Program-made: the position numbers and the translations under genes
Part shown: piece by piece, positions 16,881 through 59,032 of the stretch
How the letters are laid out: every line of letters begins with the position of its first letter
Position numbering within the stretch: position 1 is the first letter of the stretch
The notes under the pieces: generated by a model
Told to the model about the DNA's origin: nothing
Databases searched by the model: none
Seen by the model: only the letters and a program-made list of their open reading frames with translations
Assembly (NCBI GenBank): GCA_016788165.1
Contig: JAEUTH010000021.1
Span: 72,496 to 136,495, forward strand
Direction: 5' to 3'
DNA: 64,000 bases
From: Bacteroidia bacterium
GTDB taxonomy: Bacteria; Bacteroidota; Bacteroidia; AKYH767-A; OLB10

Positions 16881-16881
16881 T

Positions 16882-39951: not shown

Positions 39952-40362
39952 TCAGGGTGTAAATACCTGACAAATTTGATGATACACTTCATCAATGGGC
40001 TCCCACAATTCGATTTTATTATTTTCTAAATCGAGTATGTGCATAAATTTGCCGTATTCAAAGGTTTCGATTTCGTCTAATACGGTTACGCCTTCATTAA
40101 TAAGTTTTTCGCGCAATGCTACTAAATCATCAACCCTAAAGTTTATCATAAATGGTTTGGTTGATGGCGCAAAATAACTGCTGTCTTTTTTAAAAACACT
40201 CCATTGTGTGTGCCCAATTTTTTTGCTGTCTGTAGTTAGCCATTGAAAGGTTGTGCCATAGGTATCGGTATTAAAACCCAAATGTTTTTGATACCAATTT
40301 TTTGCATTTTCAACATCATTACATTTTATAAAAACGCCTCCAATACCTGTAACTTTTGCCAT
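39952..40362 (-). CDS. VOC-family protein (glyoxalase/bleomycin-resistance fold)
   Basis: 136 aa; GIGGVFIKCNDVENAKNWYQKHLGF; paired beta-alpha-beta-beta-beta module. Confidence 0.8.
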   Translation of the reverse strand: MAKVTGIGGVFIKCNDVENAKNWYQKHLGFNTDTYGTTFQWLTTDSKKIGHTQWSVFKKDSSYFAPSTKPFMINFRVDDLVALREKLINEGVTVLDEIETFEYGKFMHILDLENNKIELWEPIDEVYHQICQVFTP

Positions 40363-43300: not shown

Positions 43301-43832
43301 GTATCAATTTGCTGTTTGGAACTATGGTGTTGCCCCCGGCAGCCATATCAACCGTAAATCGAACTACACGTGCTATAGTGGCACTGCCATATTCATTTTT
43401 ATTCGATTTATATGCAGGTGTACCGTAGTTTAATAAGTAATGCCTGTCAACGGTGTAAAAACAATAGATGTAACCATTGTTTAAAAAATTAGGATGCAAA
43501 GCAAAACTGTTTAGACCATGATCAACCCAATTGCCTACCTCTTCGTGTAAATCAAGTAACGGGGTTGCAGCTTTGTTACCATTTGTATCTACTATCCAAA
43601 CGTAGCCGGCTTTTTCCCATACATACAACTTTTTATTTTTATCAAAAGCAATACCTAAAGGCTGATTCCAATTATTGCTTACCAAGGCATCGTTAAAAAA
43701 AGGCGGAAGCACTTGCGCACATATTTTTTGACAGGGACTAAAAAGCAGTACTAATAGAAGTGCATTTAATTTTTTTAACCATTGTGTATTCAGATTTTTA
43801 ATTACGTAATACATCGCAAAAGTTTTATTCAA
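40362..43832 (-). CDS. Large secreted multidomain protein: PQQ-type glucose/sorbosone-dehydrogenase-like beta-propeller, PKD domain, 3 Ig-like repeats, T9SS C-terminal sorting domain (tandem paralog A, 1156 aa)
   Basis: Signal peptide. GSDH-like N-terminal block (LYVWEKAGYVWIVDTNG...GLNSFALHPNFLNNGYIYCFYT). PKD block (TYHTPGTYNVKLVVTN). Three ~76-aa repeats (C...Y.WKKNG..I.GA....Y.A..SG.Y...VTD.NGC). C terminus VGVYDMIGKQQ...GIYQLIISHNNGTQKSVHKFVKN is a Por/T9SS CTD. Confidence 0.85.
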   Translation of the reverse strand: MNKTFAMYYVIKNLNTQWLKKLNALLLVLLFSPCQKICAQVLPPFFNDALVSNNWNQPLGIAFDKNKKLYVWEKAGYVWIVDTNGNKAATPLLDLHEEVGNWVDHGLNSFALHPNFLNNGYIYCFYTVDRHYLLNYGTPAYKSNKNEYGSATIARVVRFTVDMAAGGNTIVPNSKLILIGADKKNGIVITHTSHSGGTLLFGADTSLLISTGDGASFNGIDSGSSVNSFAYQALQDTMLTTANNVGAFKAQMLSSYNGKVLRIDPITGLGLSSNPYFETLNPNSVKSKIWCTGLRNPFRMAIKPNSGSNDITAGDPGVLFIGDVGWFNYEELNISKIGGENFGWPIFEGLVTNPDYLNLSVQNLDAANPLYNGSSCMRPYFMYKELLKQATLDVNDTFVNPCNSNLPLNQHPTWYHTRPIIDYRHNTNQTRTGSYVGNNASTINLGDSNATVQGVSFAGNASLAGVWYNDNRMPVEYQGKYFHLDYGSQWMKRMNFDTDNNLLAIDSFYTEMNKSSFVTVNPKDGCLNYIAYQTNEIRKICYTQYINNPPVPVISVDKRYGPSPVSIVFNASKSYDFETRVNLSYLWKFGDGYSSTGKIAGHTFVVPNGVPSSFWVSLKVTDSLGLSKTDSMLIFVNNTPPQVSISSLNDNDYYATSYQSVVNLESVVIDNEHHDSTLTYGWQVVLNHNNHYHPGPIDNDKITSAILDPEGCNNEIFYYAIILRVTDPLGLSNTDTVKLYPACSKPKAKIATSNTTICKGSSITLIDSSTVASTYKWITNGGTPSISYIKSPTITYHTPGTYNVKLVVTNPEGADSVTKSGLITVGGYANNSIVATIDTICNTQNTTLDCNVSNASSYKWFKNGTLINGVGTQTQQVNEAASYSVSVTDINGCTGTATKVIAQRAVIPQITSNKNMPICFNDSVILTGTNTANTLLTWKRNGKPISGANATSYTASQSGSFLLQTNQAGCIGKSNTIQVLLSPVYTIAADGPLTFCSNDSVVISCTNPQGTYAYQWKKNNVNITGATSSAYVAKSAGNYIVIVTDVNGCTRKSNAFKVVINCKESFGYNNFWGNISIQPNPVISTLGLSFDLTQDANVTVGVYDMIGKQQLQTTAECVAGSNLLSIDLEKLGNGIYQLIISHNNGTQKSVHKFVKN
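40650..41350 (-). repeat. Three tandem Ig-like ~76-aa domain repeats inside the 1156-aa T9SS protein (coordinates approximate)
   Basis: Repeated Cys...YKW(F/K)KNG...GC...K pattern seen in translation at about aa 825-1057. Confidence 0.5.
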
Positions 43833-46284
43833 TTATTAGTTTACCGAATATGGTTTTATGGTTAATAATGGTTTTTATAAAGTAAATTCCAGATGCCAAA
43901 TCATTAACTGAGAATGTAACATCCGTATATTTTGGCGTAGCTGTGGTGGTCTGTTTTTTACTTAAAATTTCTTTTCCGTCAATACTTAATAACGATACGT
44001 TAACCGTACCATAACTATCGCCAAACAATCTGATAGTTGTTTGATTTTTTGCCGGATTGGGCATTGCCAACATTAATATTTTTTGGCCATCATCATTTAT
44101 TCCTGCATTGCATAAGGGATACACATCTACAAAATCAGTAGCCGATAAACCTAAAGGATCGGTTACAGTTAACGATATACGGTAAAAATAAGTTTCGCCA
44201 TCGCATCCAATCGGTGATAAAATAGTATAAGTTACCGAGTCGGCATCAATAGCTTCGGGGTGTGTATGGGCGTTATGGTATAAAGTAGTTTGCCAGGCAT
44301 ATTTTAAACTATCGTTCGGACTTTCGGCATCGCTAACGGCAGCTTGCAGTAACAAGTTAGTTTGTGCTGTTATTGAATATTGTGTACCTGTGGGTATTGA
44401 TGTAATATTTACACTTGGAGGACTATCGTTTAAATATATTTTGACATTGCTTATACCGGTGTATGATGAATCGTCAGTTACCAATAAAGATGCAGTATAT
44501 ACAGTTGGTACACCCGCAACGGCAGTGTAGGTATGGGTGGGTGTGGTTACAGTACTTGAATTTCCATCTCCAAAATTCCAACTGTATTGAAGCGGCTGGC
44601 TTTCGGGGTCGGTTGATTGGCTGCCATCAAAGTTAACTGTCAGTGGAGACGAACCATATATAGTATCTGTTACAATTACAGAAGTTGGCGGATAATTTAC
44701 CTGACCTGTATAGCAAATTTGACGGATATCGTTTTGATAGGAGATGTACATTAAACAACCATTTTTTGGGTTTTGGGTTAAAAAAACAAGTTTGCCAAAA
44801 CCAAGGGCCGTATCAAATGGTAATACTTGTTTTAGATTGTAGTTGTTATCTAAACGGAAGTTATTTATCCAGCCTGCGCCATAGTCTAAATGAAAGTAAG
44901 TGTTTTTATATGCAAACGGAAAATTGTTTCCTGTGTAATAAACACCACCTAATGATGCACTTCCATCAAACATGTCTCCAAAAACGGTACTGTTGGGATT
45001 GGCAATTTGCATAACACTGGCTGTGTTGCCTGTAAATGTTGGTATGCGTGTAATTTTTTGTCCATGTCGCCAATCTAAGTCGGGTCGGGTATGAATAGCC
45101 TTTAAGCTATCCGGAATTTGTATTGTCGAGTCGCACAAATTTGGGTAAGATATTATTCCATTGGCTGTTGGTTGTTTAAGCACATCGGCAAATGTAAAAT
45201 AGGGTTGTGTGCAAGCACCAATATTGTACAATGGGTTTGGAGCCTCTACATTGGGGATATTAGCTGACGAATATTTGTTTTCACGATTTAGTCCTTCAAA
45301 AATGGGCCACCCATAATTACCACCACCTGATTTTATAATATTAAATTCTTCCCAGGTATTCCAACCAACTTCGCCCACTAATAAAATACCGGGATTACCG
45401 GCTGTTATATCTGTACTACCGGTACCCGGTATAATGGTTATACGGTAGGGATTGCGAAAACCTAATGCATACGTTCTGGATTTTGGGGAGCGCACATCAG
45501 TTGAATCGAAAAATGGGTTGCTGTTTAATCCATTACCTGTATGTCTGTCTAAACGTAAAATTTTTCCATTTAAACTACCTTTTAAAAGCGATCGTAATGC
45601 ACCTACATTATGCCCTGCGGGTATTATACTGTCGTTTAATGCTTGTAGCCAATAAGTTGTGGGAACACTGCCCGTATCTAAATCGCCATAAGATGCGCCA
45701 TCGCTGGTAGATACTATAAGGGAAGTATCGCTGCCAAAAAGTAAAGTACCACCGGTATGTGCAGGATATAAAACCGGCACGCCTGTTTTTTTGTCCTCAC
45801 CCAATAATACCAACCTACTGTTGGGTACAATTGTATGAAAGTTGGTGCTACTATCGGCTGTATATCGTGTTAAGCGGCAAATTGTAGCTTGATATTGTTC
45901 GCTGGCAGTTGAGTCGTAAAGTGGCGTTCCAAAGTAGAGTAGGTGATGCCTGTCAACCGTATAAAAAATATAGAAATAGCCATTGTTTAAAAATTCAGGG
46001 TCTAAAACAAAACCTGTAAGGCCATTGTCGCCAAATACACCTACCTCTTCATTAATATCAAGCAGTGGTGTGGTTAACCGTACATTATTAGTATCCACAA
46101 TCCATATCCTGCCTTTTTTTTCAACTACATATTGTTGTCCGTTTTTATCAAATTCGAAACAAACTACGCTTTGCCAATTTGAAGAATATACGGTATCAAT
46201 AAATCCTACCGGTAATACTTGAGCAGTTAAAACTTTACTTTTAAAAAACAGAAATAAAATAACTATGCCAAACTTAAAACGCAT
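43825..46284 (-). CDS. Secreted GSDH-like beta-propeller + PKD + T9SS C-terminal-domain protein (tandem paralog B, 819 aa); its stop overlaps the start of paralog A by 8 nt
   Basis: The N-terminal 130 aa align closely with paralog A (QVLP..F.D......NW.Q......DKN...YV.EK.G..WIVDTN......PLLD..EEVG...D.GL..F.L.P.FLNNGY.Y.FYTVDRH.LL..GTP.Y). CTD GIYFIKTIINHKTIFGKLIIE. Confidence 0.85.
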   Translation of the reverse strand: MRFKFGIVILFLFFKSKVLTAQVLPVGFIDTVYSSNWQSVVCFEFDKNGQQYVVEKKGRIWIVDTNNVRLTTPLLDINEEVGVFGDNGLTGFVLDPEFLNNGYFYIFYTVDRHHLLYFGTPLYDSTASEQYQATICRLTRYTADSSTNFHTIVPNSRLVLLGEDKKTGVPVLYPAHTGGTLLFGSDTSLIVSTSDGASYGDLDTGSVPTTYWLQALNDSIIPAGHNVGALRSLLKGSLNGKILRLDRHTGNGLNSNPFFDSTDVRSPKSRTYALGFRNPYRITIIPGTGSTDITAGNPGILLVGEVGWNTWEEFNIIKSGGGNYGWPIFEGLNRENKYSSANIPNVEAPNPLYNIGACTQPYFTFADVLKQPTANGIISYPNLCDSTIQIPDSLKAIHTRPDLDWRHGQKITRIPTFTGNTASVMQIANPNSTVFGDMFDGSASLGGVYYTGNNFPFAYKNTYFHLDYGAGWINNFRLDNNYNLKQVLPFDTALGFGKLVFLTQNPKNGCLMYISYQNDIRQICYTGQVNYPPTSVIVTDTIYGSSPLTVNFDGSQSTDPESQPLQYSWNFGDGNSSTVTTPTHTYTAVAGVPTVYTASLLVTDDSSYTGISNVKIYLNDSPPSVNITSIPTGTQYSITAQTNLLLQAAVSDAESPNDSLKYAWQTTLYHNAHTHPEAIDADSVTYTILSPIGCDGETYFYRISLTVTDPLGLSATDFVDVYPLCNAGINDDGQKILMLAMPNPAKNQTTIRLFGDSYGTVNVSLLSIDGKEILSKKQTTTATPKYTDVTFSVNDLASGIYFIKTIINHKTIFGKLIIE

Positions 46285-46313
46285 GATTTAAAATCAGATA
46301 AAAATAACGTCAG

Positions 46314-46321
46314 CAAAAGTA
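46314..46321 (-). promoter_or_regulatory. Candidate Bacteroidota -7 promoter element TAnnTTTG (TACTTTTG on the minus strand), 30 nt upstream of the paralog-B start
   Basis: Plus-strand caaaagta at 46314-46321; no well-spaced -33 TTG found. Confidence 0.3.
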
Positions 46322-46401
46322 ACCAAAAAAGCAAGCTATACCTTTATATATCGCCTATGCGTCAATAGTTTTACATAGGATTATGTTAAAAACCATTGGA
46401 A

Positions 46402-47316
46402 TTATTCAATTACATAAGTTTTTCCTTCTTCAGCTAATTGTACTTGTTTAAAAACAGGGATTGCTTCCTGAAGTAACAGATCTAAATTTTTATAACGGGC
46501 CGAAAAGTGACCAAGTAACAGCTGTTTTACTTGCGCTTGTTTTGCTATGGAAGCAGCTTGTGCTGCCGTACTGTGAAATGTAGCTTTTGCACGTTCGATA
46601 AGTGTACTGTCAAATGTGGCTTCGTGATATAGTAGTGTTATCTGTTTAAGCTGCGGTACCATATCCGGCAGGTAACATGTGTCGCTGCAATATGCATAAC
46701 TGCGTAATGTTTTTTGTGGGATGGTTAATATATTGTTTTCTATGGTCTTTCCTTTATCGGTTACATAAGGCAAGCCATTTTTTATATCGTTATAAAACGA
46801 AATTGGAATTTTGTATTTCTTTAATGCCTTGATGTCTAAATTTTTTAAACGTTTTTTTTCACGAAACAAAAATCCGGTGCATGGTATGCGGTGACTTAAA
46901 ATAACCGTACTAATTTCTAATTCGCCATCATCATAAATTATTTGTGATTGAAAATGTTGTAATGGATGAAATACAAGTGCATACCGTAAGGTAGTGCTTG
47001 ATACTTTTAATTGCATTTCGATTATATCCATCAACTCGGGCTGACCGTACAGGTGAAGTTCTTCGGTTCGGCCATTGAGGTTCATGGTAGATATTAACCC
47101 CATTAAGCCCAAATAATGATCGCCATGTAGGTGGGATATTAAAATATGTTTAATTTTTTGATGCTTAAAATTGTAGCGCAACATTTGAATTTGAGTGCCT
47201 TCGCCACAATCAATTAAAAAAAAACGCTCGTGATAGTTTAGTATCTGAGCGCTTGGAAATCTATTAATTTGTGGCGTTGCCGAACCACAACCTAAAATAG
47301 TTACTTCAAATGTCAT
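46402..47316 (-). CDS. rnz: Ribonuclease Z (tRNA 3'-processing endonuclease, MBL fold)
   Basis: LGCGSATP...IDCGEGTQ...ISHLHGDHYLGL (HxHxDH) and C-terminal HFS motif. Confidence 0.92.
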   Translation of the reverse strand: MTFEVTILGCGSATPQINRFPSAQILNYHERFFLIDCGEGTQIQMLRYNFKHQKIKHILISHLHGDHYLGLMGLISTMNLNGRTEELHLYGQPELMDIIEMQLKVSSTTLRYALVFHPLQHFQSQIIYDDGELEISTVILSHRIPCTGFLFREKKRLKNLDIKALKKYKIPISFYNDIKNGLPYVTDKGKTIENNILTIPQKTLRSYAYCSDTCYLPDMVPQLKQITLLYHEATFDSTLIERAKATFHSTAAQAASIAKQAQVKQLLLGHFSARYKNLDLLLQEAIPVFKQVQLAEEGKTYVIE

Positions 47317-48065
47317 TAACGTTTTGAGCTTATCATTTTTCGGGTGTAGGTACTTATGCCATCAGATAAGGTGTACATGTAAATGCCCGATGGCCATTCG
47401 GCTGTTTCTAACCTGTAAATATTTTTGCCGGCCGATCCTTTAATTTGTCTCGACAAAATTTCTTTTCCTATTAAGTTAAAAAGCTTTAGCGTTACTATTT
47501 TTTCAATAGGCGATGTAAATATGATATTGGTATAATTATTAAAAGGATTTGGTTCATTTGGTAACAACGCAAATCGGTTTGTGTTAGGGTTTAAAATTCC
47601 CGATGTTGATGCAATATTAATTGTGTAATAATCTACGGTATCAATTTGTGTAATGGGTATTAAACCGGCTACCTTACCTTTTGTTGATATTATGGCGATA
47701 GGCATAAATGTGCCGGCTTGTGTGGGTGTACCTGCTAACAATACGCATCCGTTGCTACCACCTACAAATTTGCATGTAGGCGGGTTGCATGCATAACTTA
47801 ATCCGGGAGGTAAATTTGAAAAAGATAGTAAGGTTATTGAATCAATATTTACCGTAGCCTGGCCTAAGGGTGTTTGGGCAACCGTATCTAAGGGAACTTT
47901 AATTTGAATTACCTCGTTATAGGGCGTACTTACAAAACCACCTGCTAGGCCCGTTGCACTATCGGGGTATATGCCCGGGTTTACAATTGAAGTATTGGGC
48001 ACACATTGGGCCCATATATAGTTGCACAAAATTATGGCTACAAATGTTAGTATGTGTTTTTTCAT
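47316..48065 (-). CDS. Secreted protein with T9SS C-terminal sorting domain, function unknown
   Basis: Signal peptide MKKHILTFVAIILCNYIWAQ; C-terminal ~80 aa (VTLKLFNLIGKEILSRQ...GIYMYTLSDGISTYTRKMI) fits the Por_Secre_tail pattern. Confidence 0.75.
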   Translation of the reverse strand: MKKHILTFVAIILCNYIWAQCVPNTSIVNPGIYPDSATGLAGGFVSTPYNEVIQIKVPLDTVAQTPLGQATVNIDSITLLSFSNLPPGLSYACNPPTCKFVGGSNGCVLLAGTPTQAGTFMPIAIISTKGKVAGLIPITQIDTVDYYTINIASTSGILNPNTNRFALLPNEPNPFNNYTNIIFTSPIEKIVTLKLFNLIGKEILSRQIKGSAGKNIYRLETAEWPSGIYMYTLSDGISTYTRKMISSKR

Positions 48066-48130: not shown

Positions 48131-48898
48131 TTAGGATGTTGTTTCAAATAAATCGGCAATGTTTATGGAATAAAAATGTGGCATGGTATGATTGTTATTT
48201 ATCACCACGCTAGCCCAGTAATCATCAACTGAAAAGGTGTAAAAATCAAATTTATCGGCAAAGGCACCTGCAATAAATGTTTCGGTTTGTATGTATGGGC
48301 TAAGGCCTGTTGTGTCAACTGCTTTTAAATTACCAAAAACGCCAATACCCACTGCCTTAAGCCAGGCTTCTTTACGACTCCAATACTTAAAAAAATGTGA
48401 TAATGGTGCTGCACTTTTTGCAATATCACTTATCTCATTGGCTGCATAATTTCTTTCCATAAAGTCGTCAATTTTAAAAGCCGGACGAATTTGTTCTATA
48501 TCAACACCAATTTCATGATGTGAACTAAATCCAATTAAAATTTTACTGCCCGAATGCGATAGATTAAAAAATAAATTGCCGAAACAAATTTCTATGCATG
48601 GTTTTTTGGTTATGGATTCGGTAAAAGTAATCGTTTCGGGTTTTTGATTGAGATACCTGCCAACTAATAACCGCAATGCGCCCCGTCCGAATACAAAACG
48701 CGTTTTGTCATCTTGTTGTTTAAACCGGCTTAAGCGTTCCAACTCATCTTGATTTAGCAACTTAACTAAGGGATTATACAGTGCTGTATTATTCGTATCA
48801 ATTAACCAAACCTGTAAATCAAATTCATTAAAATTAGGTATGGCTTGTTGCCATTGTGGCTGTAAAATATCATGTACACAAAATGAAAACCGTTGCAT
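48131..48898 (-). CDS. 4'-phosphopantetheinyl transferase, Sfp/EntD type
   Basis: FNLSHSG...IGVDIE (motif 2) and FFKYWSRKEAWLKAVGIG (motif 3, W..KEA..K). Start lies 2 nt after the NRPS stop. Confidence 0.85.
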   Translation of the reverse strand: MQRFSFCVHDILQPQWQQAIPNFNEFDLQVWLIDTNNTALYNPLVKLLNQDELERLSRFKQQDDKTRFVFGRGALRLLVGRYLNQKPETITFTESITKKPCIEICFGNLFFNLSHSGSKILIGFSSHHEIGVDIEQIRPAFKIDDFMERNYAANEISDIAKSAAPLSHFFKYWSRKEAWLKAVGIGVFGNLKAVDTTGLSPYIQTETFIAGAFADKFDFYTFSVDDYWASVVINNNHTMPHFYSINIADLFETTS

Positions 48899-48900
48899 CT

Positions 48901-51900
48901 CTAGTTAAGTTGTTTTTTATTAGCGTAGTATGCATTTATTTGTTTCATGAGTTGGTTTGCAAGTTCAATTACATTGGGTTGATCGAATATAGAGTTGTGA
49001 TTTCCGGGTGTGCTTACAACTTCAAGTTTACCTTTTGCAAAGTAGCCCCATCCCAAATCATTTTCATATTCAATTGGCGAGTAAAATCCGTTTTTGGCCC
49101 TGAATAAAATGCAATGAAAATTTGAACTGTTGATATGATAGTTTTTTAAGGCTTTGTAACAGTTTTCTTCAACGTTGTTAAAGTAATCGGCCGAAACGGT
49201 ACCATATTTTTCAGCTATCAATTCTTTTTCAAGCCATTCGTCTATTTGCTTTTTACGAATATCAACTTGTGGATTTTTATTGTTGATTTTATTTTTCAAA
49301 TACACCAACTTATCATCCATGCTTTGATTTGCTAATAGTTTTAATCGTGAAACAACACGTTGTGATTTTAATTTAAGTTCTACAATTTGCTTTTCAACAC
49401 CTTCTAATGCCTCTGATTTGGTGGCGGCTTCTACATCAAATAAAGCCACAAAACCAATTTCCTTTCCCATTGCCGAAAGTTGGCAGGCAATTTCATAGGC
49501 TAACGTTCCGCCAAATGATCCACCGCCTAAAAAGTATGGTCCATCGGGTTGCATTTTTAAAATTTCTGAGGTATGGTAAGCAGCCATTTCTACTAAATCG
49601 CTAAAGGGTTTGTCTAAACCATTTAGGCCACGTGCTTGCAAACCATAAGAAGGTGTGTTATTATCTAACAATTTGCCTAATGTGTGGTACTTAAATACAT
49701 TGCCGCTTACACCATGTGCAAAATATACCGGTGCATGATTGCCGCCTTCGCGTATGGGTATTATCGATTTCCAAAGTTCGCCCGATGCTTCATTGTCAAT
49801 TACCTGTGCCAATTGTACTAATGTTGGATTTGTAAACAGCACTGCCAATGGCAATCTTATTTTTTTTAAATATTCAATTTCAATCATTAACCGAACAGCA
49901 ATAATGCTATGCCCGCCTAATTCGAAAAAATTATCATTTAAACTTACATCGTTAATATTTAATAATTTTTCCCAAACCTGTGCAAGCATTTTTTCGGTTT
50001 CAGTTGTGGGCGCTACTTGTAATTGGCTACCTTTTCGTACTTCAAATTCAATTTCGGGCAATGCGTTTCTGTCAATCTTACCATTGTTAGTTAATGGCAT
50101 TTTGGGCAATACTTTATATGCAACTGGTAGCATATAATGTGGTAGTGATTTTTCGAGATGTTGTTTTATTTTATTGATGAGTTCCTGATTCTCATCCACT
50201 TTATAGGGTGCGTTTGCCGCTTGTTGTAATGCACTTAGTGCTACGTTTAAAGTAAGATAGCGTGGCATGGTATTGCATAATAGCTGATAATTTGTTTTAG
50301 GTATAAATGCCACATCAATACTGCTTTGGCCTATGCGGTCTGTCCAATAAATTTCAGCTTCAAAGCCGGCTTCTGTTGCCAGCTCAAATAAATCCTGAGG
50401 GTCGATGGCATCGGGTAGGTTAAAAAGCTGCTCAATAATAATTCCGCAGTTTAAGTCATCCGTACTGTGCCTAATTAAATCGAGTGCTGTTTTGTCTTTT
50501 AAAAGTCGTTTGTTTGGTATGTTTTTAAAACCAAATGGTTGTTGTTGTTTGAATAACTCGTCTAATTCGGTTAAATCGGTTTCATTGCCAAAGGGCTGAT
50601 AATTAATTTGAATGGTTTCGGGTTTGGCATCCTTAAACAATACAACATCATAATGGTATTTGGTGGTTTCGTTAAAGATGCGGCCTTTGCGCATTAAGTA
50701 TTTTGCAAAGTTGTATGCAGGATATTTTAAACAAAGTGCTTCAAAAAATTCAATGTCAACGGCTAATTCCAACTCATTTAAAACACGATTTTGAATAAGC
50801 CTTCGTAAACGCGCAACAGGTTGCCTGATATCAATACGGTGCAATTGTTCATGCGTATGATGCATTTCTATGAGCATATTGCTTTGCACATCGCCAATAA
50901 ATACGCATCCACCGGGTGCAAGTGCATCGAGGCATTTTGCCAATACATCTTCTAAATAAGCAGCATTAGGAAAGTATTGAACTACTGAGTTAATAATAAT
51001 ACAATCAAAACTGCCGGGTGTTATGCCTGAAAAATCATCGGCAGTAGCCAAACTAAAAGCTACTTTATTTTGAAGTGTATCATCGTTTGTAATTTTAAGT
51101 TGTAATTCGTCTAAAGCAGCTTGTGCATAATCAGTTGCCAGATAATATTCGCTTATGGGCGCAATTTGAAACAGTACCTGTCCGGCACCGCAACCAATTT
51201 CATAAACACGCTTGGGTTGTAAATGTTTTATGCGTTCTATGGTTTGATCCAACCATTCATTAACTTCAACTTCAATGGCTTCGTTTCCGCTAATTTGTTG
51301 TGCTATGGCTGTATCTAATTTTCTGTCTTTTATGGTTTGATTTTCGATGGCTTTCATACCTGCATCATAAATCAAGTCCCATTTTTCGCGCCAGTTACTC
51401 ACATGATTGTTGCCATTGTTATTTTGTTGTTCATGTACGGTAATGTATGCCAACAATTGGTTTTCGTGGTTTTTGTCTGGCATGGTTACAACAGCTGTAT
51501 TGCTTACTTCAGGTATTTGGCTGATAGCAGTTTCTATTTCGCCTAATTCAATTCTAAAGCCGCGTACCTTTACCTGATAGTCGCTGCGCCCCGTACATTC
51601 TAACAATCCATTTTTATTGTAACGGCCTAAGTCGCCAGTTTTGTAAATGTATGCGCTTTGTGCGTCAGCAAATGGAGTAGATAAAAATCGCTCTTGTGTT
51701 AAATCATCTCGGTTTAAATAGCCTTTAGCCAAACCTGCACCACCTATGTAAATATCCCCTTCGATACCAATAGGCACTTGTTGCAAATTATTATCCAGTA
51801 TATAAAACGTTGTATTAGCTATGGGTTGGCCAATTTTTACACCCTGGTTTTGTAATACCTGTGCTTCAGGTAATTTATAACAACTGCTCCATACGGTTGT

Positions 51901-54189
51901 TTCTGTAGGGCCATATACGTTGTAAACGTCTTTGCTGCGTTGTTGCAACTGAAGAGCTAATTCTAAAGGCAGGCCTTCGCCACCGCACAATATTTTAATG
52001 TCAGATTTTTGCCAGCCTGCATCTACCAACATGCGCCAGGTTGCCGGTGTTGCCTGCATAAAAGTTATGTTACCCGTTGCCAGATATTTTAATAAAACAC
52101 GTGGGTCGGCTGTTTCATCTTTTAATGCAATTTCAACTTTACCGCCTGTAAGTAAGGGCAAAAAGAGTTCGAGTTCGGCAATGTCAAATGAAATGGTTGT
52201 TATAGCAAGTAAAGTATCGTTGGCATTAAAACCGGTAATTTCAATAAAGCTGTGTATCAGATTTACCAAAGCAGCATTATGTACCATTACGCCTTTTGGC
52301 AAACCGGTTGAGCCTGATGTGTATAGGATATAAGCTAAGGCGTTTTCATCGTATTTGATAACCGGTTTACTAGTAACGGCAGGTAATGTATTTTGCCAAT
52401 TATCGGTTACTAAAATATTTGATATACTGAAGCGATGTTTTTTTAAAATCTCTTGCTCTGTAATCATGTTTTGCAAGCCGGCATTGCTAATCATGTATTC
52501 AATTCTATCGGCCGGAAAATCGGGGTCTATAGGCAGGTAAACGCCTCCGGCTTTTAGTATGCCCAACATAGCAAAAACTATATTTGCCGACCTATTTACG
52601 CATAAGCCAACCACTTGACCGCGTTTTAATCCATTACCCACCAGGTAATTGGCAATGCGATTAGCCATTGCTTCGGTTTGTGCGTAAGTATGGCTGTTAT
52701 TACCGCACGTTATGGCGGTATTTTGTGGCGTTAAACTTACTTGTTTTTCGAACCAACTTTGAATGGTTCCTGATAAATAATCCGGGTGGTTGGTATTATT
52801 CCATTGTTTAATAATTTCAACTTCGTTAATGGGTGTAAGTTGTACGTTATTAATTTTTGTTTTCATATCGGCAGCAAGTTGTTCCAATACAAAAACAAAT
52901 TCATGCAAACGGTTATGCATCAAATCATTGTCATACAAATCGGTGTTAAAAGTACATTCAATGGCCAGGTTGTTTTGTTGGCCTGAGATATTGAAAAAAA
53001 TTTCGAAGTTTTCGTAGTTACGCGGATTCGAAAATAACTCCAGTTGCAGTTTTTCGAATGCAACACCATCGGCCAAGCCTAAGTCGGCATTAAATGCAAC
53101 AGGTACTAACGGAATACGTGATGGGTCGCGTGGTACGTTTAGCTTTTTTATAAGTGTACCAAATGTGTAACGTTGATTTTCGAATGCATCGAACAAGGTT
53201 TTTTTACGTGCCACCAGGTAATCGCTAAAAGAAGTATTACCGTCAACACGTGTTTTAAGTGGCAATAAATTTACGCAATGACCTACTAATGAGTAGTTAT
53301 CGGTAACAGATTGGCCGGCAGATGGCAGACCCAAAATAATGTTTGGCTGTTTGGTAAGTTTAAATAAAAAAACTTCATATGCGGCAATAAGTGTATTTAC
53401 CAAACTGCAACCCAATTGTGCACCAGCTTTTTTAATTTGTGTAATAACATCATTGGGTAAAGGGCAGTCAATACGTTTGGCATTATAACTGCGCAAAGCG
53501 GGCCGCGGTTTATCAGTTGGCAACTCAAAAACCTGATTATAATCTTTATAAAGGTTAAGCCAATATTGAGCAGTTGTTTCGTAAGCAGTACTTGCTTCGA
53601 ATGCAATTTCATCGGCTACGTAATCATCAAACTGAATTGCCGGTTGCAATACAGCAGGTTGCCCGGTAACATGTTGGTTGTAAAAGGCACTTAAATCCTG
53701 CATAACTATACCCATACTCCAACCATCGCATACAATGTGATGCGCTGTAATAATTACATAATGTAATTGCGCTGCCAGCTTTATAACCTTAACATCAAAC
53801 AAAGGGCCGTTGGGTAAATCAAATGGGGCCGATACATCTTCGGTAATAATTTCGTTTAAATGTGCTTGTTGTTCGGCTGTGGCAATATTACTGATGTCAA
53901 TTAGTGGTACATCTATAGTAGTATTATCTGCAATTCGCATTTTTACACCTTCTTCGATAAAAGTAGCACGCAATGAGCCATGACGTGCAACTACAGCATT
54001 GGCCGCTTTTACAATAGCATCGTAAACAAAAGGGCCGGTAAGTTTTAAGGTTAGCGATTCGTTATAGGCGCAATTGGCAGCATCGTTTCCAAATTTTACG
54101 GAGCCTAAAATTTCGCGCTGTGGTTCGGAAGTAGGAATAATTTTATCAAGGTCTTTAAACGGGTCAAAGTCAACAGGAGTAAGATTCAT
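48901..54189 (-). CDS. Single-module non-ribosomal peptide synthetase: C - A (with methyltransferase inserted between A8 and A9) - PCP - TE, 1762 aa
   Basis: C: HHIVCDGWS (aa 149-157). A: LAYILYTSGSTGLPKG (A3), NVYGPTE (A5), YKTGDLGR (A7), GRSDYQVKVRGFRIELGEIE (A8), LPHYMLP / NGKIDR (A9/A10, aa 1349-1374). MT: VYEIGCGAGQ (aa 995-1004) ... LAPGGCVFIGDV. PCP: FFELGGHSII (Ser ~1428). TE: GGSFGG (Ser ~1558). Confidence 0.93.
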   Translation of the reverse strand: MNLTPVDFDPFKDLDKIIPTSEPQREILGSVKFGNDAANCAYNESLTLKLTGPFVYDAIVKAANAVVARHGSLRATFIEEGVKMRIADNTTIDVPLIDISNIATAEQQAHLNEIITEDVSAPFDLPNGPLFDVKVIKLAAQLHYVIITAHHIVCDGWSMGIVMQDLSAFYNQHVTGQPAVLQPAIQFDDYVADEIAFEASTAYETTAQYWLNLYKDYNQVFELPTDKPRPALRSYNAKRIDCPLPNDVITQIKKAGAQLGCSLVNTLIAAYEVFLFKLTKQPNIILGLPSAGQSVTDNYSLVGHCVNLLPLKTRVDGNTSFSDYLVARKKTLFDAFENQRYTFGTLIKKLNVPRDPSRIPLVPVAFNADLGLADGVAFEKLQLELFSNPRNYENFEIFFNISGQQNNLAIECTFNTDLYDNDLMHNRLHEFVFVLEQLAADMKTKINNVQLTPINEVEIIKQWNNTNHPDYLSGTIQSWFEKQVSLTPQNTAITCGNNSHTYAQTEAMANRIANYLVGNGLKRGQVVGLCVNRSANIVFAMLGILKAGGVYLPIDPDFPADRIEYMISNAGLQNMITEQEILKKHRFSISNILVTDNWQNTLPAVTSKPVIKYDENALAYILYTSGSTGLPKGVMVHNAALVNLIHSFIEITGFNANDTLLAITTISFDIAELELFLPLLTGGKVEIALKDETADPRVLLKYLATGNITFMQATPATWRMLVDAGWQKSDIKILCGGEGLPLELALQLQQRSKDVYNVYGPTETTVWSSCYKLPEAQVLQNQGVKIGQPIANTTFYILDNNLQQVPIGIEGDIYIGGAGLAKGYLNRDDLTQERFLSTPFADAQSAYIYKTGDLGRYNKNGLLECTGRSDYQVKVRGFRIELGEIETAISQIPEVSNTAVVTMPDKNHENQLLAYITVHEQQNNNGNNHVSNWREKWDLIYDAGMKAIENQTIKDRKLDTAIAQQISGNEAIEVEVNEWLDQTIERIKHLQPKRVYEIGCGAGQVLFQIAPISEYYLATDYAQAALDELQLKITNDDTLQNKVAFSLATADDFSGITPGSFDCIIINSVVQYFPNAAYLEDVLAKCLDALAPGGCVFIGDVQSNMLIEMHHTHEQLHRIDIRQPVARLRRLIQNRVLNELELAVDIEFFEALCLKYPAYNFAKYLMRKGRIFNETTKYHYDVVLFKDAKPETIQINYQPFGNETDLTELDELFKQQQPFGFKNIPNKRLLKDKTALDLIRHSTDDLNCGIIIEQLFNLPDAIDPQDLFELATEAGFEAEIYWTDRIGQSSIDVAFIPKTNYQLLCNTMPRYLTLNVALSALQQAANAPYKVDENQELINKIKQHLEKSLPHYMLPVAYKVLPKMPLTNNGKIDRNALPEIEFEVRKGSQLQVAPTTETEKMLAQVWEKLLNINDVSLNDNFFELGGHSIIAVRLMIEIEYLKKIRLPLAVLFTNPTLVQLAQVIDNEASGELWKSIIPIREGGNHAPVYFAHGVSGNVFKYHTLGKLLDNNTPSYGLQARGLNGLDKPFSDLVEMAAYHTSEILKMQPDGPYFLGGGSFGGTLAYEIACQLSAMGKEIGFVALFDVEAATKSEALEGVEKQIVELKLKSQRVVSRLKLLANQSMDDKLVYLKNKINNKNPQVDIRKKQIDEWLEKELIAEKYGTVSADYFNNVEENCYKALKNYHINSSNFHCILFRAKNGFYSPIEYENDLGWGYFAKGKLEVVSTPGNHNSIFDQPNVIELANQLMKQINAYYANKKQLN

Positions 54190-54514
54190 TATTTAAATAT
54201 CAGATATACAACAACTTAATTTTTAAATGCAACAGGCTTATGCCAAGGTGCAAATATAGGTCTTTAAGGTTATTTATGGCATAGATGAACTTGAACTATT
54301 TTTACGCTAAGACACGCTAATTGAAGCATAGAGAAAGGGTTTTTAAAAATATATTTTGGTTTACATTACTTAATCAGATTACGATATAAAAGTTTATTTG
54401 CGCAGCTAAAATCCTTTTTCTTTTTTTGACGCAACCACGATTTCGAATTTTAAATTGTAAAACCATTACACACTTTATAAAACCGGCAAATGTTTAATTA
54501 TATAAAAAAGTTTT

Positions 54515-56218
54515 ATGAAAAAAGGTTATCTGTTATGGTTAGCAATGGTTTATGCAACGTGCAGCATTGCGCAAGTTAATTTTTACGTATCGCCTACGGG
54601 CAGTAATTCAAATCCGGGTACTATTACCCAACCCTGGAAAACGTTTCAAAAAGCATGTGATGCAGCAACACCAGGTAGTACGGTGTTCTTAAGAGGTGGT
54701 ACCTATGCCAAAGCGGTTTTAAATGTAAATGGCACCTCGGGCAACTACATTACTTTTACAAATTATCCGGGCGAAACAGCCGTAATAGATGGCGGTAATG
54801 CAAAACGTACACTCTTTTATGCGAAGAATAAAAGTTACATAAAAGTAGTTGGCCTTGAGTTTAGAAATGCAGTTGGTAATTATTCGATAGGAATTGAATT
54901 TGAAGGCAAATGCAGTTATATTGAAATTTTAAATAATAGGATACATGATATTCATTTTAATGTAAATCCGGCTGCTGTTGCTAATTCAAATAAAAATACC
55001 AATCCATTGGTAATTTATGGAACCGATTCATTGATTGCCGCAAACCATATTTTAATATCAGGTAATACCATTTACAATTGCCGCACAGGCTATAGCGAAG
55101 CTTGTACAGTAAATGGAAATGTTGATGGATGGGAAATTATTAATAACACCATTCATGATATAACCAATATTGGAATTGATGCAAGTGGTGGTTATAAAGT
55201 ATCGAAAAATGTAGCATTAGATGTGGCCCGAAATGGCGTTATCAGGGGCAATGTGGTTTACAACTGCAAATCGCCTTATGCATCAGCTGCCGGCATTTAT
55301 GCCGATGGTGCAGATGATGTTTTAATTGAACGCAATATTTGTTATAACAATCAGTATGGTTTTGAAATAGGTTGCGAAGAAAAAAACAGTATTGCAAGTG
55401 GTATTATTATGCGCGAAAACATTGCCTATAATAATGATGAAGCCGGTATTGCTTTGGGTGGTTATAATTATCCGAATACAGGTAAGGTGGATGATTGTTA
55501 CATAAACAATAACACTTTTTACAATAATGATTTAACGCAAAAGGGCCAAGGCGAATTGGTACTTACACATTTAGAAAACAGTGTATTTATTAATAACATA
55601 ATGCATGGTGGCAACAAACGCCTTTTATTTAACTCGGCCATTGGCAACTTACTGGGCAATACTTTTGATTATAATAACTGGTTTACCATTGACACAGACA
55701 GTACCAAGCCCATGTTTAAAATTAATGGTTCTAACTATAAAACTTTTGCTGACTATGTAGGTTCGGCATTGGGGTGGGACAGCCATTCGGTTTTTGGCAA
55801 TCCTAATTTTGTTTCAGGTGCTGATTTTCATTTAACCACAGGCTCGTTTGCATATAACCTGGGCGACCCTGCATTTGTTGCCGGTTTAGGCGAAACCGAT
55901 TTTGATTTGGCCCCAAGGAAATATGATAACCGCGTTGATGCAGGCGCATACGAATCGCAGGTACCTTTGCGCTCAACTGTTAGTACGTATGAAAGCAAAA
56001 TACTTACTGTTTATCCCAATCCCTGTACAACAGTTTTAAATATTAGTTGTGATGCCGAAGTACAAAAAATTCGTGTATTAAACTTGAGTGGTAATGAAGT
56101 GATTGTTTTACCGCCCATACAAATTTTAAATATCGAGAATTTTACAAGCGGATTTTACATTTTGGAAGTCATAACTTCAGATCAAACCATTTTAAGGAAA
56201 ACTTTTATAAAAAGGTAA
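54515..56218 (+). CDS. Secreted right-handed parallel beta-helix (pectin-lyase-fold) protein with T9SS C-terminal sorting domain
   Basis: Signal peptide; repeated NN.I.. / G..V.NC beta-helix rungs (IHDIHFN, ISGNTIYNC, IRGNVVYNC, IERNICYNN, MRENIAYNN, INNNTFYNN). C terminus TVYPNPCTTVLNI...GFYILEVITSDQTILRKTFIKR. Confidence 0.8.
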   Translation: MKKGYLLWLAMVYATCSIAQVNFYVSPTGSNSNPGTITQPWKTFQKACDAATPGSTVFLRGGTYAKAVLNVNGTSGNYITFTNYPGETAVIDGGNAKRTLFYAKNKSYIKVVGLEFRNAVGNYSIGIEFEGKCSYIEILNNRIHDIHFNVNPAAVANSNKNTNPLVIYGTDSLIAANHILISGNTIYNCRTGYSEACTVNGNVDGWEIINNTIHDITNIGIDASGGYKVSKNVALDVARNGVIRGNVVYNCKSPYASAAGIYADGADDVLIERNICYNNQYGFEIGCEEKNSIASGIIMRENIAYNNDEAGIALGGYNYPNTGKVDDCYINNNTFYNNDLTQKGQGELVLTHLENSVFINNIMHGGNKRLLFNSAIGNLLGNTFDYNNWFTIDTDSTKPMFKINGSNYKTFADYVGSALGWDSHSVFGNPNFVSGADFHLTTGSFAYNLGDPAFVAGLGETDFDLAPRKYDNRVDAGAYESQVPLRSTVSTYESKILTVYPNPCTTVLNISCDAEVQKIRVLNLSGNEVIVLPPIQILNIENFTSGFYILEVITSDQTILRKTFIKR

Positions 56219-56356: not shown

Positions 56357-59032
56357 TTAAAATGTTGCCAATTGTTGTTGTAGTAACTGTATTTTTTGCT
56401 CCGTATCGGCTTTCTTCTTCTGTTCCATTACAAGCACTTCGGGCTTTGCTTTAGCTGTAAAATTGTTGTTGTTAAGTTTAGCATCTACCGATTTTAAAAA
56501 TCCAATCAGGTAATTTATTTCTGCTTGCAATTTTTCTTTTTCGGCTGCTGTATCAATTTTGTTGGCTAATAAAATAAAGTGTTCAACTTCACCTACCAGA
56601 AACGATGTTGCCTGCGCCACTGTTGTATCGGTAAAGGCTATTTGGCTCAGGTTACCCAGTTTTATTATTAAAGGACTAAACGGATTTTCAGTTGGTTTTT
56701 GTTTAATAAATAGAGGCAATGTTTCTTTAGGTGAAATGCCTTTCGATGCCCGAATGTTTCTGATTTGAGTAACCGTTTCGGCAAACAATTCAAACTGGTT
56801 ATTAATAGATTCATTAACAGCAGCCAGTACAGGCCAGTTTGCAACAATTATACAATCGGCAGGATTACGTTCTGTAATTAAATGCCACAACTCTTCGGTG
56901 ATAAATGGCATCCAAGGGTGCATTACTTTTAATATGTTTTCGAAGTAATGCATGGTTACGTCATATACTTTCTGGCTAATTGGTGCGCCAAAAGCTGGTT
57001 TAATCATTTCTAAATACCAGGCACAAAAGTCGTCCCAAACTAACTTATATGTAGCCATTAATGCATCGCTCATCCGGTACTTATCGTAATGCAGATTTAT
57101 ATCGGCTAACGACTTATTAAATTTATTTTCGAACCATTGCATAGCAATATTTTCACCAGCAGTAGGTTGCAGGTCTGCATCGGTAGTCCATCCTTGCGTT
57201 AGCCGGAATGCATTCCAAACCTTATTAGCAAAATTACGACCTTGTTCGCACAGGGCTTCGTCAAAGGGCAAATCGTTGCCTGCAGGCGAACTAAGCAACA
57301 TACCAACACGCACACCATCGGCACTGTATTTTTCAATAAGTTCAATCGGGTCGGGCGAGTTGCCTAAGCTCTTACTCATTTTTCGTCCTAATTTATCGCG
57401 CACAATGCCTGTTAGATATACATTGGTAAATGGCTTTTGGCCTCTATACTCATAACCGGCTATAAGCATACGTGCTACCCAAAAAAATAAAATTTCAGGT
57501 GCTGTAATTAAATCGTTGGTCGGGTAGTAGTAGTTAATGTCTTTGTTATCCGGATCTTTAAATCCATCAAATACACTTATGGGCCATAACCAGGAGCTAA
57601 ACCAGGTATCTAAAACATCTTCGTCTTGTGTAATTTCTATGTTTTCGACTGATAAATTTAGTTTAGTCGCAAGTTGTTTCTTTGCTTCATTTTCGGTTTT
57701 GGCAACAACAAAATTTCCATGCTTGTCATACCAGGCAGGTATGCGTTGCCCCCACCACAGTTGGCGGCTAATACACCAGTCGTGTACATTTTCCATCCAA
57801 TGCTTGTAGGTATTTATAAATTTATCGGGTATCAGTTTTACATCACCGTTAATAACAGCTTCTAATGCAGGTTTGCTTATGGTATCCATTTTTAAAAACC
57901 ATTGCATGCTTAAACGCGGTTCAATAACGGCATCGGTACGCTCACTGTATCCTACTTTGTTTTTATAATCTTCGGTTTTAAGCAGGTGTCCTGCATTTTG
58001 CAAATCGGCAACAATTTGTTTACGAACCGCAAAACGATCCATACCAATATAAAACTGCGCAGCATCACTCATGGTTCCATTAGCTGCAATGGTGTCAATT
58101 ACTTCTAAATTGTGCTTAACGCCTAAGTTGTAATCATTTATATCGTGTGCAGGTGTAACTTTTAATGCACCGGTACCAAAATCCATGGTAATGTAATCGT
58201 CAAGTATGATAGGCACTTTGCGGTTTACAAATGGTATTACGGCAAATTTACCATGTAAATGTTTGTATCGTTCGTCATCAGGATGCACGCAAACAGCGGT
58301 ATCGCCTAAAATAGTCTCGGGCCTAACTGTGGCAATGGTTATAGTGTGGCCTTGTTGTTGTTTGTTTTTAATCCATGCTTCAGTTATTTCATCATCAGCA
58401 TCAGCAATGGGATAACTTACATAGTAAAGTTTTGAATTAACTTCTTTGTGTATTACTTCTTCATCACTAACGGCAGTTAGTCCTTTCGGATCCCAATTTA
58501 CCATGCGCACACCGCGATAAATATGACCTTTATTATGCAAATCAATAAACACATCAATAACGGCTTCGCTAAGGTCGTCTTCCATTGTAAATCTGGTGCG
58601 GTCCCAATCGCATGAAGCACCTAATTTTTCTAATTGTTTTAAAATGATGCCACCATATTTTTCTTTCCAGGCCCAGGCATGTTTTAAAAATTCATCACGC
58701 GTTAAATTGTTCTTTTCAATGCCCTGTTCTTTAAGCAGTGCAACAACTTTTGCTTCGGTGGCAATAGATGCATGGTCGGTACCGGGTACCCAGCAGGCAT
58801 TAAAGCCTTGCATGCGTTTCAAGCGGATTAATGCATCTTGAATGGTATTGTTTAGCATGTGGCCCATGTGTAGTACACCGGTTACATTGGGTGGCGGTAT
58901 AACTATCGTATAGGGTGTACGTTGGTCGGGTATTGATTTAAAAAAACCTTGTTGCAACCAATGTGCATACCATTTGTTTTCTACGGTTTGCGGATTGTAT
59001 TTGGTTTCGATAGTTGATAGCTTGTTTGACAT
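56357..59032 (-). CDS. valS: Valine--tRNA ligase
   Basis: HMGH (HIGH-type) motif PPPNVTGVLHMGHMLN, KMSKS motif (GRKMSKSLGN), C-terminal coiled coil; 891 aa. Confidence 0.97.
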   Translation of the reverse strand: MSNKLSTIETKYNPQTVENKWYAHWLQQGFFKSIPDQRTPYTIVIPPPNVTGVLHMGHMLNNTIQDALIRLKRMQGFNACWVPGTDHASIATEAKVVALLKEQGIEKNNLTRDEFLKHAWAWKEKYGGIILKQLEKLGASCDWDRTRFTMEDDLSEAVIDVFIDLHNKGHIYRGVRMVNWDPKGLTAVSDEEVIHKEVNSKLYYVSYPIADADDEITEAWIKNKQQQGHTITIATVRPETILGDTAVCVHPDDERYKHLHGKFAVIPFVNRKVPIILDDYITMDFGTGALKVTPAHDINDYNLGVKHNLEVIDTIAANGTMSDAAQFYIGMDRFAVRKQIVADLQNAGHLLKTEDYKNKVGYSERTDAVIEPRLSMQWFLKMDTISKPALEAVINGDVKLIPDKFINTYKHWMENVHDWCISRQLWWGQRIPAWYDKHGNFVVAKTENEAKKQLATKLNLSVENIEITQDEDVLDTWFSSWLWPISVFDGFKDPDNKDINYYYPTNDLITAPEILFFWVARMLIAGYEYRGQKPFTNVYLTGIVRDKLGRKMSKSLGNSPDPIELIEKYSADGVRVGMLLSSPAGNDLPFDEALCEQGRNFANKVWNAFRLTQGWTTDADLQPTAGENIAMQWFENKFNKSLADINLHYDKYRMSDALMATYKLVWDDFCAWYLEMIKPAFGAPISQKVYDVTMHYFENILKVMHPWMPFITEELWHLITERNPADCIIVANWPVLAAVNESINNQFELFAETVTQIRNIRASKGISPKETLPLFIKQKPTENPFSPLIIKLGNLSQIAFTDTTVAQATSFLVGEVEHFILLANKIDTAAEKEKLQAEINYLIGFLKSVDAKLNNNNFTAKAKPEVLVMEQKKKADTEQKIQLLQQQLATF

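Follow-up and report, generated by a model that had tools for sequence, protein, structure and literature searches.

Nonribosomal peptide synthetases (NRPSs) that consist of a single termination module form a known class, and the pair of genes analyzed here is an uncharacterized member of that class rather than a new kind of system. The pair, a single-module NRPS gene followed directly by a phosphopantetheinyl transferase (PPTase) gene, lies in a 64-kb stretch of DNA from a Bacteroidia bacterium (GCA_016788165.1, contig JAEUTH010000021.1, positions 72,496 to 136,495), which as a whole is hereafter called the window. AB3403 of A. baumannii and EntF share the four-domain architecture of the window module, with condensation (C), adenylation (A), thiolation (T), and thioesterase (TE) domains. 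In both systems a free-standing A domain loads a stand-alone carrier protein, which supplies the donor. Unlike the window module, they have clustered partner genes and no methyltransferase (MT) domain, and their C domains are only modestly similar to that of the window (83 bits for AB3403 and 36 bits for EntF). FrsA, from the FR900359 pathway (Cstarter-A-T-TE), resembles the window protein in having one module, an N-acyl amino acid product, and a donor that does not come from an upstream module, and its TE determines the fate of the product. It differs in its starter-type C domain using acyl-CoA, its leucine substrate, the absence of an MT, the need for an MbtH-like protein, and its setting in a large NRPS cluster. 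Pys and SwrW, set beside the window by description only, are reportedly minimal one-gene NRPSs that take their acyl donor from fatty acid metabolism; unlike the window, they use proline and serine, respectively, and have no MT.

Three further systems resemble parts of the locus. MycA of mycosubtilin and iturin biosynthesis (AL-ACP-KS-AMT-T-C-A-T, AL being an acyl ligase), to which McyE of microcystin biosynthesis is analogous, combines polyketide synthase (PKS) and NRPS parts, and relatives of the window NRPS likewise stand behind a ketosynthase (KS), acyltransferase (AT), acyl carrier protein (ACP), and aminotransferase (AMT). In comparison with MycA, the window has no KS, AT, ACP, or AMT gene of such a line and has a single NRPS module ending in a TE. 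Its relatives also differ from MycA, in that their loading domain has a proline-type code (DVQFIAHVV) instead of a fatty-acyl ligase and they usually have the PKS and the NRPS as two distinct proteins, joined by a C-terminal tail and an N-terminal VDFDPF motif. The interrupted A domain of TioS (A4-M4, 5WMM) carries its MT between motifs A8 and A9, as does the window protein; unlike the latter, it methylates valine and needs an MbtH-like partner, and no MbtH-like gene was seen at the window locus. Finally, the tetramate modules NcmB and TrdD are C-A(Gly)-T modules downstream of a PKS with the glycine code DILQLGVI, and they differ from the window in having no TE, no MT, and a separate Dieckmann cyclase.

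In the window, 2 nt separate the NRPS stop codon from the PPTase start codon on the same strand, and the two genes are almost certainly co-transcribed. Their G+C contents (0.38 and 0.35) are in line with that of the window (0.36). The NRPS is identical in sequence to MBL7926548.1, from a 339-kb contig of a 'Bacteroidia bacterium' metagenome-assembled genome (MAG). The features of the pair, with amino acid (aa) positions in the synthetase, are:

48901..54189, reverse strand: single-module NRPS gene, 1762 aa, C-A(MT)-T-TE (open reading frame list, translation, Pfam)
54157..54174, reverse strand: VDFDPF N-terminal motif, aa 6-11, putative docking element (invariance and distribution)
52822..54087, reverse strand: condensation domain, aa 35-456, HHIVCDGWS, LCL-like/hybrid type (Pfam, 263 bits)
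51415..52752, reverse strand: A domain core A1-A8, aa 480-925, code DILQLGVVWK (Pfam; code by motif anchoring)
50200..51387, reverse strand: methyltransferase insert, aa ~935-1330, S-adenosylmethionine (SAM) motif VYEIGCGAGQ at aa 995-1004 (Pfam Methyltransf_12/25/11)
50065..50190, reverse strand: C-terminal part of the A domain, A9 LPHYMLP and A10 NGKIDR (Pfam AMP-binding_C, aa 1334-1371)
49798..49986, reverse strand: thiolation (carrier) domain, aa 1402-1464, GGHS with Ser1427 (Pfam PP-binding, 45 bits)
48904..49731, reverse strand: thioesterase domain, aa 1487-1762, Ser1558/Asp1585/His1731, long lid (Pfam, family alignment)
48131..48898, reverse strand: Sfp/HetI-type 4'-phosphopantetheinyl transferase, 255 aa (Pfam ACPS and AASDHPPT_N)

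An initial annotation of this DNA had described a 1762-aa C-A(MT)-T-TE synthetase with an Sfp-type PPTase 2 nt behind it. Pfam domains and motifs bore out the architecture, and the coordinates of the open reading frames (ORFs) agreed with the spacing. The Pfam matches themselves covered aa 480-825 for AMP-binding (275 bits), aa 982-1122 for the methyltransferase, and aa 1487-1591 for Thioesterase (62 bits). The C-domain active site HHIVCDGWS, of the HHxxxDG type, is present as annotated, but at aa 150-158 rather than 149-157, and is kept in all homologs; the annotated GGSFGG thioesterase motif was located at aa 1556-1561, near the C-terminal end, with Ser1558 as part of the triad listed above. 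The A domain contains A3 YTSGSTGLPKGV, A4 FDIA, A5 NVYGPTE, A7 YKTGDL, and A8 GRSDYQVKVRGFRIELGEIE. The PPTase is two-lobed (AASDHPPT_N and ACPS), with the Sfp-type motifs GVDIE at 131 and WSRKEAWLKA at 173. It scored 115.8 bits against the NCBIfam HetI model NF042922, under the curated equivalog cut-off of 370, and by sequence is HetI-like and not a HetI ortholog. Motifs A3-A10, the SAM motif, the carrier serine, the TE triad, and the PPTase motifs were all present and conserved in homologs, and homologs share both ends of the protein. These findings answer two doubts left by the initial annotation, that the A-domain core motifs might be incomplete and that the protein might be a truncated fragment of a larger synthetase. 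Judged by its motifs, the NRPS is a catalytically complete C-A-T-TE termination module.

Which amino acid the module loads had been left to extraction of the 10-residue A-domain code. Anchored on A4, A5, and A10 and read with GrsA numbering, this code is DILQLGVVWK, and DILQLGV(V/I)WK is common to all five close family members. The family code was scored as 8/8 identical to the NcmB pocket DILQLGVI, which has been assigned to glycine in nocamycin biosynthesis (PMC5466765), and DILQLGMIWK is found in glycine-activating domains (PMC12283262). AB3403, which was crystallized with glycine, is among the better solved matches to the window NRPS (551 bits). The predicted substrate of the A domain is glycine. 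The high full-length LgrA score does not speak for an LgrA-like specificity, since it sums two A domains.

The MT lies within the A domain, as annotated: it is inserted between A8 and A9, carries the SAM-binding GxGxG motif, and, searched alone, scored 136 bits against its best solved relative, the interrupted A domain of TioS (5WMM). Against the full-length NRPS, 5WMM scored 393 bits, with query aa 439-1381, the A-M-A region, aligned. We infer a backbone N-methyltransferase type, a choice over O- or S-methylation that lies beyond proof from sequence. The insert is precisely absent from the homologs P0009 and P0015. The unit tethered to the T domain is therefore predicted to differ within the family, being sarcosine in the window protein and glycine in the MT-less members.

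The initial annotation had also proposed starter-C logic, in which a module beginning with a C domain acylates its single amino acid. To type the C domain, we ranked its scores against solved C domains, a ranking that is not a formal subtype classification. The highest scores came from LCL domains (TycC6 146, Txo2 130, FscG 107, and LgrA C2 103 bits), while acyl-accepting or starter domains scored lower (PvdL 90, SrfA-A 78, RzmA 54, CDA 50, and EntF 36 bits) and the C domain of AB3403 scored 83 bits. The LPxDxxRP motif after C4 that typifies LCL domains (Rausch et al. 2007, PMC1894796) is present as LPTDKPRP at aa 223-230. Together with the phylogenetic position described below, these results do not support a C domain of the classical starter (lipoinitiation) type and suggest an LCL-like/hybrid type. 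The product class proposed in the initial annotation, an N-acyl-N-methyl amino acid, is still plausible, with the qualification that something other than a simple fatty acid may form its acyl part.

Relatives of the window NRPS indicate where such a C domain may have obtained its donor. In Pedobacter foliorum (L007), a Puia-like contig (L008), and L009, a ~2200-aa A-T-KS-AT-ACP-class III aminotransferase protein is encoded directly upstream of the NRPS, and in L007 and L008 the PPTase follows the NRPS. Scanning metagenomes with the family T-TE alignment yielded 80 loci, 24 of which have a single-module C-A-T-TE protein directly behind A-T-KS-AT-ACP-AMT, usually with the PPTase next. Beyond these 24, L007-L009, L092, and L094 also have C-A-(MT)-T-TE or C-A-T-C-A-T-TE following A-T-KS-AT-ACP-AMT. 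The version in L022 is C-A-MT-T-TE. The AMT domain of the PKS is closest to the solved MycA aminotransferase 6KFM (416 bits), which argues for MycA/McyE logic: the β-keto group would be transaminated and a β-aminoacyl thioester passed to the C domain. Among the closest PKS-bearing loci (L012, L017, and L019), the TE is 46-48% identical to that of the window, the loading domain of the PKS carries the proline code DVQFIAHVV, and the NRPS has the canonical glycine code DILQLGLIW. Examples of the cluster span L012:251-6985, L017:302-6973, L019:182-7003, and L007:3405-9998, with ~20 more loci. It occurs in soil and freshwater metagenomes, Bacteroidota and Myxococcota included, and a literature search for a PKS-AMT plus C-A-T-TE cluster type returned no description. 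The cluster A(Pro)-T-KS-AT-ACP-AMT / C-A(Gly)-T-TE / Sfp-type PPTase is apparently widespread and undescribed, and the window pair, as an orphan NRPS locus in an uncultured bacterium, is of value as an entry point to it.

The C domain of the window shares 40-45% identity with the N-terminal C1 domains of two-module relatives and 40-49% with the protein-N-terminal C domains of relatives overall. In the two-module relatives, the internal C2 domain is less similar to it than C1, except in P0022. We built a neighbor-joining tree of C domains with 100 bootstraps, a phylogeny that the initial annotation had suggested as a check. C domains from loci without a PKS (the window family together with L014 and L016) nest inside those coupled to a PKS, in a clade with L012, L017, L019, and P0036 at 99% bootstrap support. 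This nesting implies that the two-gene state is derived from the three-part cluster. By phylogeny, the window C domain descends from C domains that condense a β-aminoacyl thioester with an amino acid.

A second trace of this ancestry may lie at the protein termini. Every split NRPS of the clade begins with x(V/I)(D/E)FDPF, a motif never found before an internal C domain, and every split PKS ends in a ~35-aa tail, PPxPGA(R/K)LG(R/K)DxxGxP(A/G)WFxxDxxxPGKYxQ. In 5 of the 24 loci, PKS and NRPS are fused into one ~3500-aa polypeptide; all five fused proteins have neither the tail nor xDFDPF, the AMT running directly into the C domain. VDFDPF is invariant in the seven PKS-less proteins (the window and six others), whose C region has only six fully conserved stretches of 5 or more residues, VDFDPF and the catalytic CDGWS among them. 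This distribution suggests that tail and VDFDPF are a C-terminal/N-terminal docking pair. Split systems with both elements, fused systems with neither, and the window lineage with the NRPS half only amount to a natural experiment on docking. Two loci show that parts of the system can be unlinked. In L092, the tail is on a separate ACP-AMT protein that is not encoded by the gene adjoining the VDFDPF-bearing NRPS. In a Bacteroidetes MAG (GCA_016714535.1, L093:10001-12121, MBK8847650.1), a 706-aa tail-bearing ACP-aminotransferase stands alone, with no KS, AT, or NRPS within 10 kb on each side, as a mirror image of the orphan NRPS of the window.

Given the retained docking-like motif and the unlinked components in some cases, we tentatively favor a carrier-protein partner: the window NRPS would be the terminating half of a two-part line whose donor carrier protein docks on VDFDPF and is encoded elsewhere in the genome, a reading we place a little short of an even chance. 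The Sfp/HetI-type PPTase would be the dedicated activating enzyme of the module. From its specificity code, the A domain would activate glycine and load it onto the T domain, and the inserted MT, by homology of the TioS type, would N-methylate it to sarcosyl-S-T, glycine being kept in MT-less members. The C domain would then acylate the tethered amine with a thioester donor not encoded at the locus, most likely presented on a separate carrier protein docking at the N-terminal VDFDPF. By descent, the donor protein would be of the ACP-aminotransferase or PKS type and would offer a β-amino or otherwise β-substituted acyl group. The TE would release X-CO-N(Me)-CH2-CO- by hydrolysis, lactamization via the β-amine, Dieckmann cyclization, or transfer to an acceptor. 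By origin, the two genes are the NRPS and PPTase remnant of a widespread three-part cluster composed of A(Pro)-T-KS-AT-ACP-AMT, C-A(Gly)-T-TE, and PPTase.

An LCL-like C domain by type accepts aminoacyl or peptidyl donors, and the single modules of RXP systems can be used iteratively (PMC9872161). Copies of the window module might likewise donate to one another, in the manner of stand-alone C-A(MT)-T modules of the rhabdopeptide type, to give sarcosine oligomers or a diketopiperazine. We regard such self-condensation as very improbable here: the window protein ends in a TE and lacks anything at its C-terminus like the tail paired with VDFDPF in relatives, and its closest relatives all take a PKS-derived donor.

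Conservation of the pair bears on whether it functions at all. Among homologs, P0001 is 79% identical to the window NRPS and fully syntenic, P0002 is 59% identical with the MT present, and P0009 and P0015 are 59% identical, MT-less, and 1367-1368 aa long. On the contigs of all four, the PPTase is directly after the NRPS while other neighbors differ, and the PPTase sits after the NRPS in all related loci. Without a PKS, the two-gene unit recurs in about eight contexts (L001-L004, L014-L016, and the window), in some with the MT insert and in others lacking it. A second PKS-less lineage (L014/L015 and L016) has the same two genes with a C domain 47-48% identical to that of the window, and the L014 pair has housekeeping flanks. 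A frameshifted NRPS copy at a contig end (L011) repeats the two-gene arrangement. A protein search with the T-TE region listed mostly short fragments and showed that close family members are rare. An exhaustive HMMER search with the C domain was dominated by giant multi-module NRPSs whose scores are summed over many C domains and gave one family fragment (P0357). Among GTDB species genomes, the NRPS found only two irrelevant A-domain matches. A literature search for a single-module N-acyl-glycine NRPS in Bacteroidetes found no description.

Loss of the PKS partner in cis, relative to sister lineages, would also be expected if the pair were decaying, left over from a larger cluster and without a present function. 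This we find barely credible. The 5.3-kb ORF is intact, catalytic motifs are all kept across homologs of 47-82% identity, and the pair persists in several lineages. Conservation within the family is also higher in the C domain than in the A domain, at 82% against 69% identity for P0001 and 63% against 54% for P0009, which implies that the C domain is under selection and that the protein is not a decaying fragment.

The same recurrence of exactly two genes in about eight neighborhoods, with housekeeping flanks, suggests another origin for the donor. After loss of the PKS, the pair may have become an autonomous minimal synthetase, in essence the model of the initial annotation. The C domain would draw its acyl thioester from primary metabolism, such as an acyl-CoA or a 3-hydroxy- or 3-keto-acyl-ACP of fatty acid synthesis, and use it to N-acylate sarcosyl-S-T before release by the TE. 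The product would be an N-acyl-sarcosine or, with a 3-ketoacyl donor and Dieckmann cyclization, an N-methyl-3-acyl-tetramic acid; tetramates derived from glycine usually come from C-A(Gly)-T modules (PMC5466765). No carrier, ligase, or tail-bearing ORF was found near the pair, and the PKS-less proteins cluster together in the tree. One-module C-A-T-TE proteins working on donors from CoA or primary metabolism also have precedents in FrsA, which uses propionyl-CoA, and Pys, whose single gene by itself enables a heterologous Pseudomonas to make pyreudione. A further one-module precedent fed by fatty acid metabolism is reportedly SwrW, which synthesizes serrawettin W1. Nevertheless, the window C domain falls outside the starter clade and descends from C domains that dock to carrier proteins, and its docking-like N-terminal motif is still invariant, which would be unexpected without a protein partner. 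We consider autonomy possible but doubtful; an autonomous pair would make N-methylated lipo-amino acids or tetramates by a very compact pathway. Its more specific form, a two-gene pathway drawing 3-substituted acyl thioesters from fatty acid synthesis to make sarcosine-based amphiphiles, is unlikely. The amphiphiles would be natural N-acyl-sarcosinates or, by TE-catalyzed Dieckmann cyclization, N-methyl-3-acyl-tetramic acids. Compounds of the latter kind are known from marine sponges. The amphiphile might then act at the cell surface of a gliding Bacteroidia lineage bearing a type IX secretion system (T9SS).

Several observations weigh against the unlinked carrier-protein partner that we favor. 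The initial annotation had reported no second NRPS or PKS, ligase, or ACP within about 10 kb, and this extends to the full 64 kb: neither Pfam scans of ORFs 100 aa or longer nor tblastn, queried with PKS/ACP/AMT, turned up a further NRPS, PKS, carrier protein, or acyl ligase in the window, whose gene content was further checked by synteny with the annotated locus L001. The tblastn search matched only the NRPS and, at 27131-28330, a class III aminotransferase. A partner (KS, AT, ACP, or AMT-tail) was likewise missing beside the pair in all of the approximately eight PKS-less contexts. Searching the window and family loci with the PKS by tblastn returned nothing relevant, and a six-frame regular-expression search for the tail motif in the window and the other PKS-less loci returned no ORF. 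Of less weight, the best 120 of >6000 matches to an AMT-plus-tail profile included none labeled as a 'Bacteroidia bacterium' MAG, and 0 of 10 accessions checked from this search were near MBL79265xx. Each of these searches for the partner covered less than a whole genome. In relatives, the PKS is always adjacent or fused; coupled with the clustering of PKS-less proteins, this fits gene loss with a donor switch as well as relocation. The two PKS-less groups are sisters in the neighbor-joining tree, though with 54% support. In addition, the docking role of VDFDPF is drawn wholly from its distribution, and the glycine assignment leans on a code read with GrsA numbering. The initial annotation had held that an elongation-type C domain with its partner encoded elsewhere would refute its reading; the elongation or hybrid type was found, while the partner was not. 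The locus thus raises the question of whether a hybrid-type C domain has been re-used with a new donor after PKS loss or still depends on an unlinked partner.

The release step may vary independently of the donor. In ~30 metagenome loci, a C-less A(Gly)-T-TE protein of ~890 aa with the code DILQLGMIW lies in polysaccharide operons, as in L028:2313-13162, with the gene order Wzy, hexapeptide acyltransferase, Wzx, glycosyltransferases (GT) 1 and 2 (GT1, GT2), [A-T-TE], GT2, GT2. Those named are L028, L029, L032, L042, L045, L049-L052, L057, L059, L067, L069, L080, L086, and L087, and these operons suggest NRPS-like glycylation of a polysaccharide. Several PKS-coupled relatives also adjoin Wzx, Wzy, or GT genes (L007, L008, L021, L022, L034, L037, L077, and L082). 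The TE of the C-less proteins is related to that of the window (~35% identity), which hints that TEs of this clade may be able to pass their product to an acceptor, and FrsA shows that an NRPS TE is capable of intermolecular transfer. Rather than release a free metabolite, the window TE might transfer a glycyl or sarcosyl group, acylated or not, to a further molecule, for example a glycan or lipid of the cell surface. Near the window pair and its close homologs, however, no glycosyltransferase, Wzx, or Wzy gene was found, and TE identity to the polysaccharide-operon proteins is low, leaving this an improbable outcome. It touches the release step only and is compatible with either model of the donor.

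Other features of the window that concern the pair are its flanks, the region upstream of the NRPS, and the aminotransferase detected by tblastn:

27131-28330, forward strand: stand-alone class III aminotransferase, 399 aa, the sole window match to the AMT domain of the partner PKS (316 bits)
46402-47316: RNase Z (340 bits), flank of the pair
54190..54514, no strand assigned: divergent intergenic region 5' of the NRPS (sequence)
54251-54258, reverse strand: candidate Bacteroidetes-type -7 element TATATTTG, weak because the motif is common
56357-59032: valyl-tRNA synthetase (ValRS), flank of the pair

The aminotransferase is 20 kb away from the NRPS, without an ACP or tail, and looks like a housekeeping enzyme. 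Elements of the TAnnTTTG type had 91 matches in the window, fewer than in shuffled sequences. Matches from a sigma-70 promoter scan upstream of the NRPS were not above those in shuffles, and the sigma-70 model is inapplicable to Bacteroidota.

The immediate flanks of the pair are housekeeping or T9SS cargo genes. The T9SS cargo genes (Por_Secre_tail) at 40362-48065 and 54515-56218 encode a 249-aa protein, two GSDH+PKD proteins, and one beta-helix protein. In an unrelated context (L002:1300-9665), four tandem T9SS cargo paralogs lie just upstream of the pair. Such genes are common and clustered, and their presence beside the pair could be chance. Synteny between the window and L001, the locus of the 79% identical relative, is broken solely between ValRS and the NRPS, where L001 has an alpha/beta hydrolase (L001:8841-9788) in place of the T9SS beta-helix protein at 54515-56218. 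Elsewhere in the window, at 16197-19131 on the reverse strand, a 749-aa fusion of a ThiF-like and a nitroreductase domain is encoded beside a 227-aa ORF without a Pfam match, among genes for a 7TMR-DISM sensor kinase, a hybrid kinase, and a response regulator.

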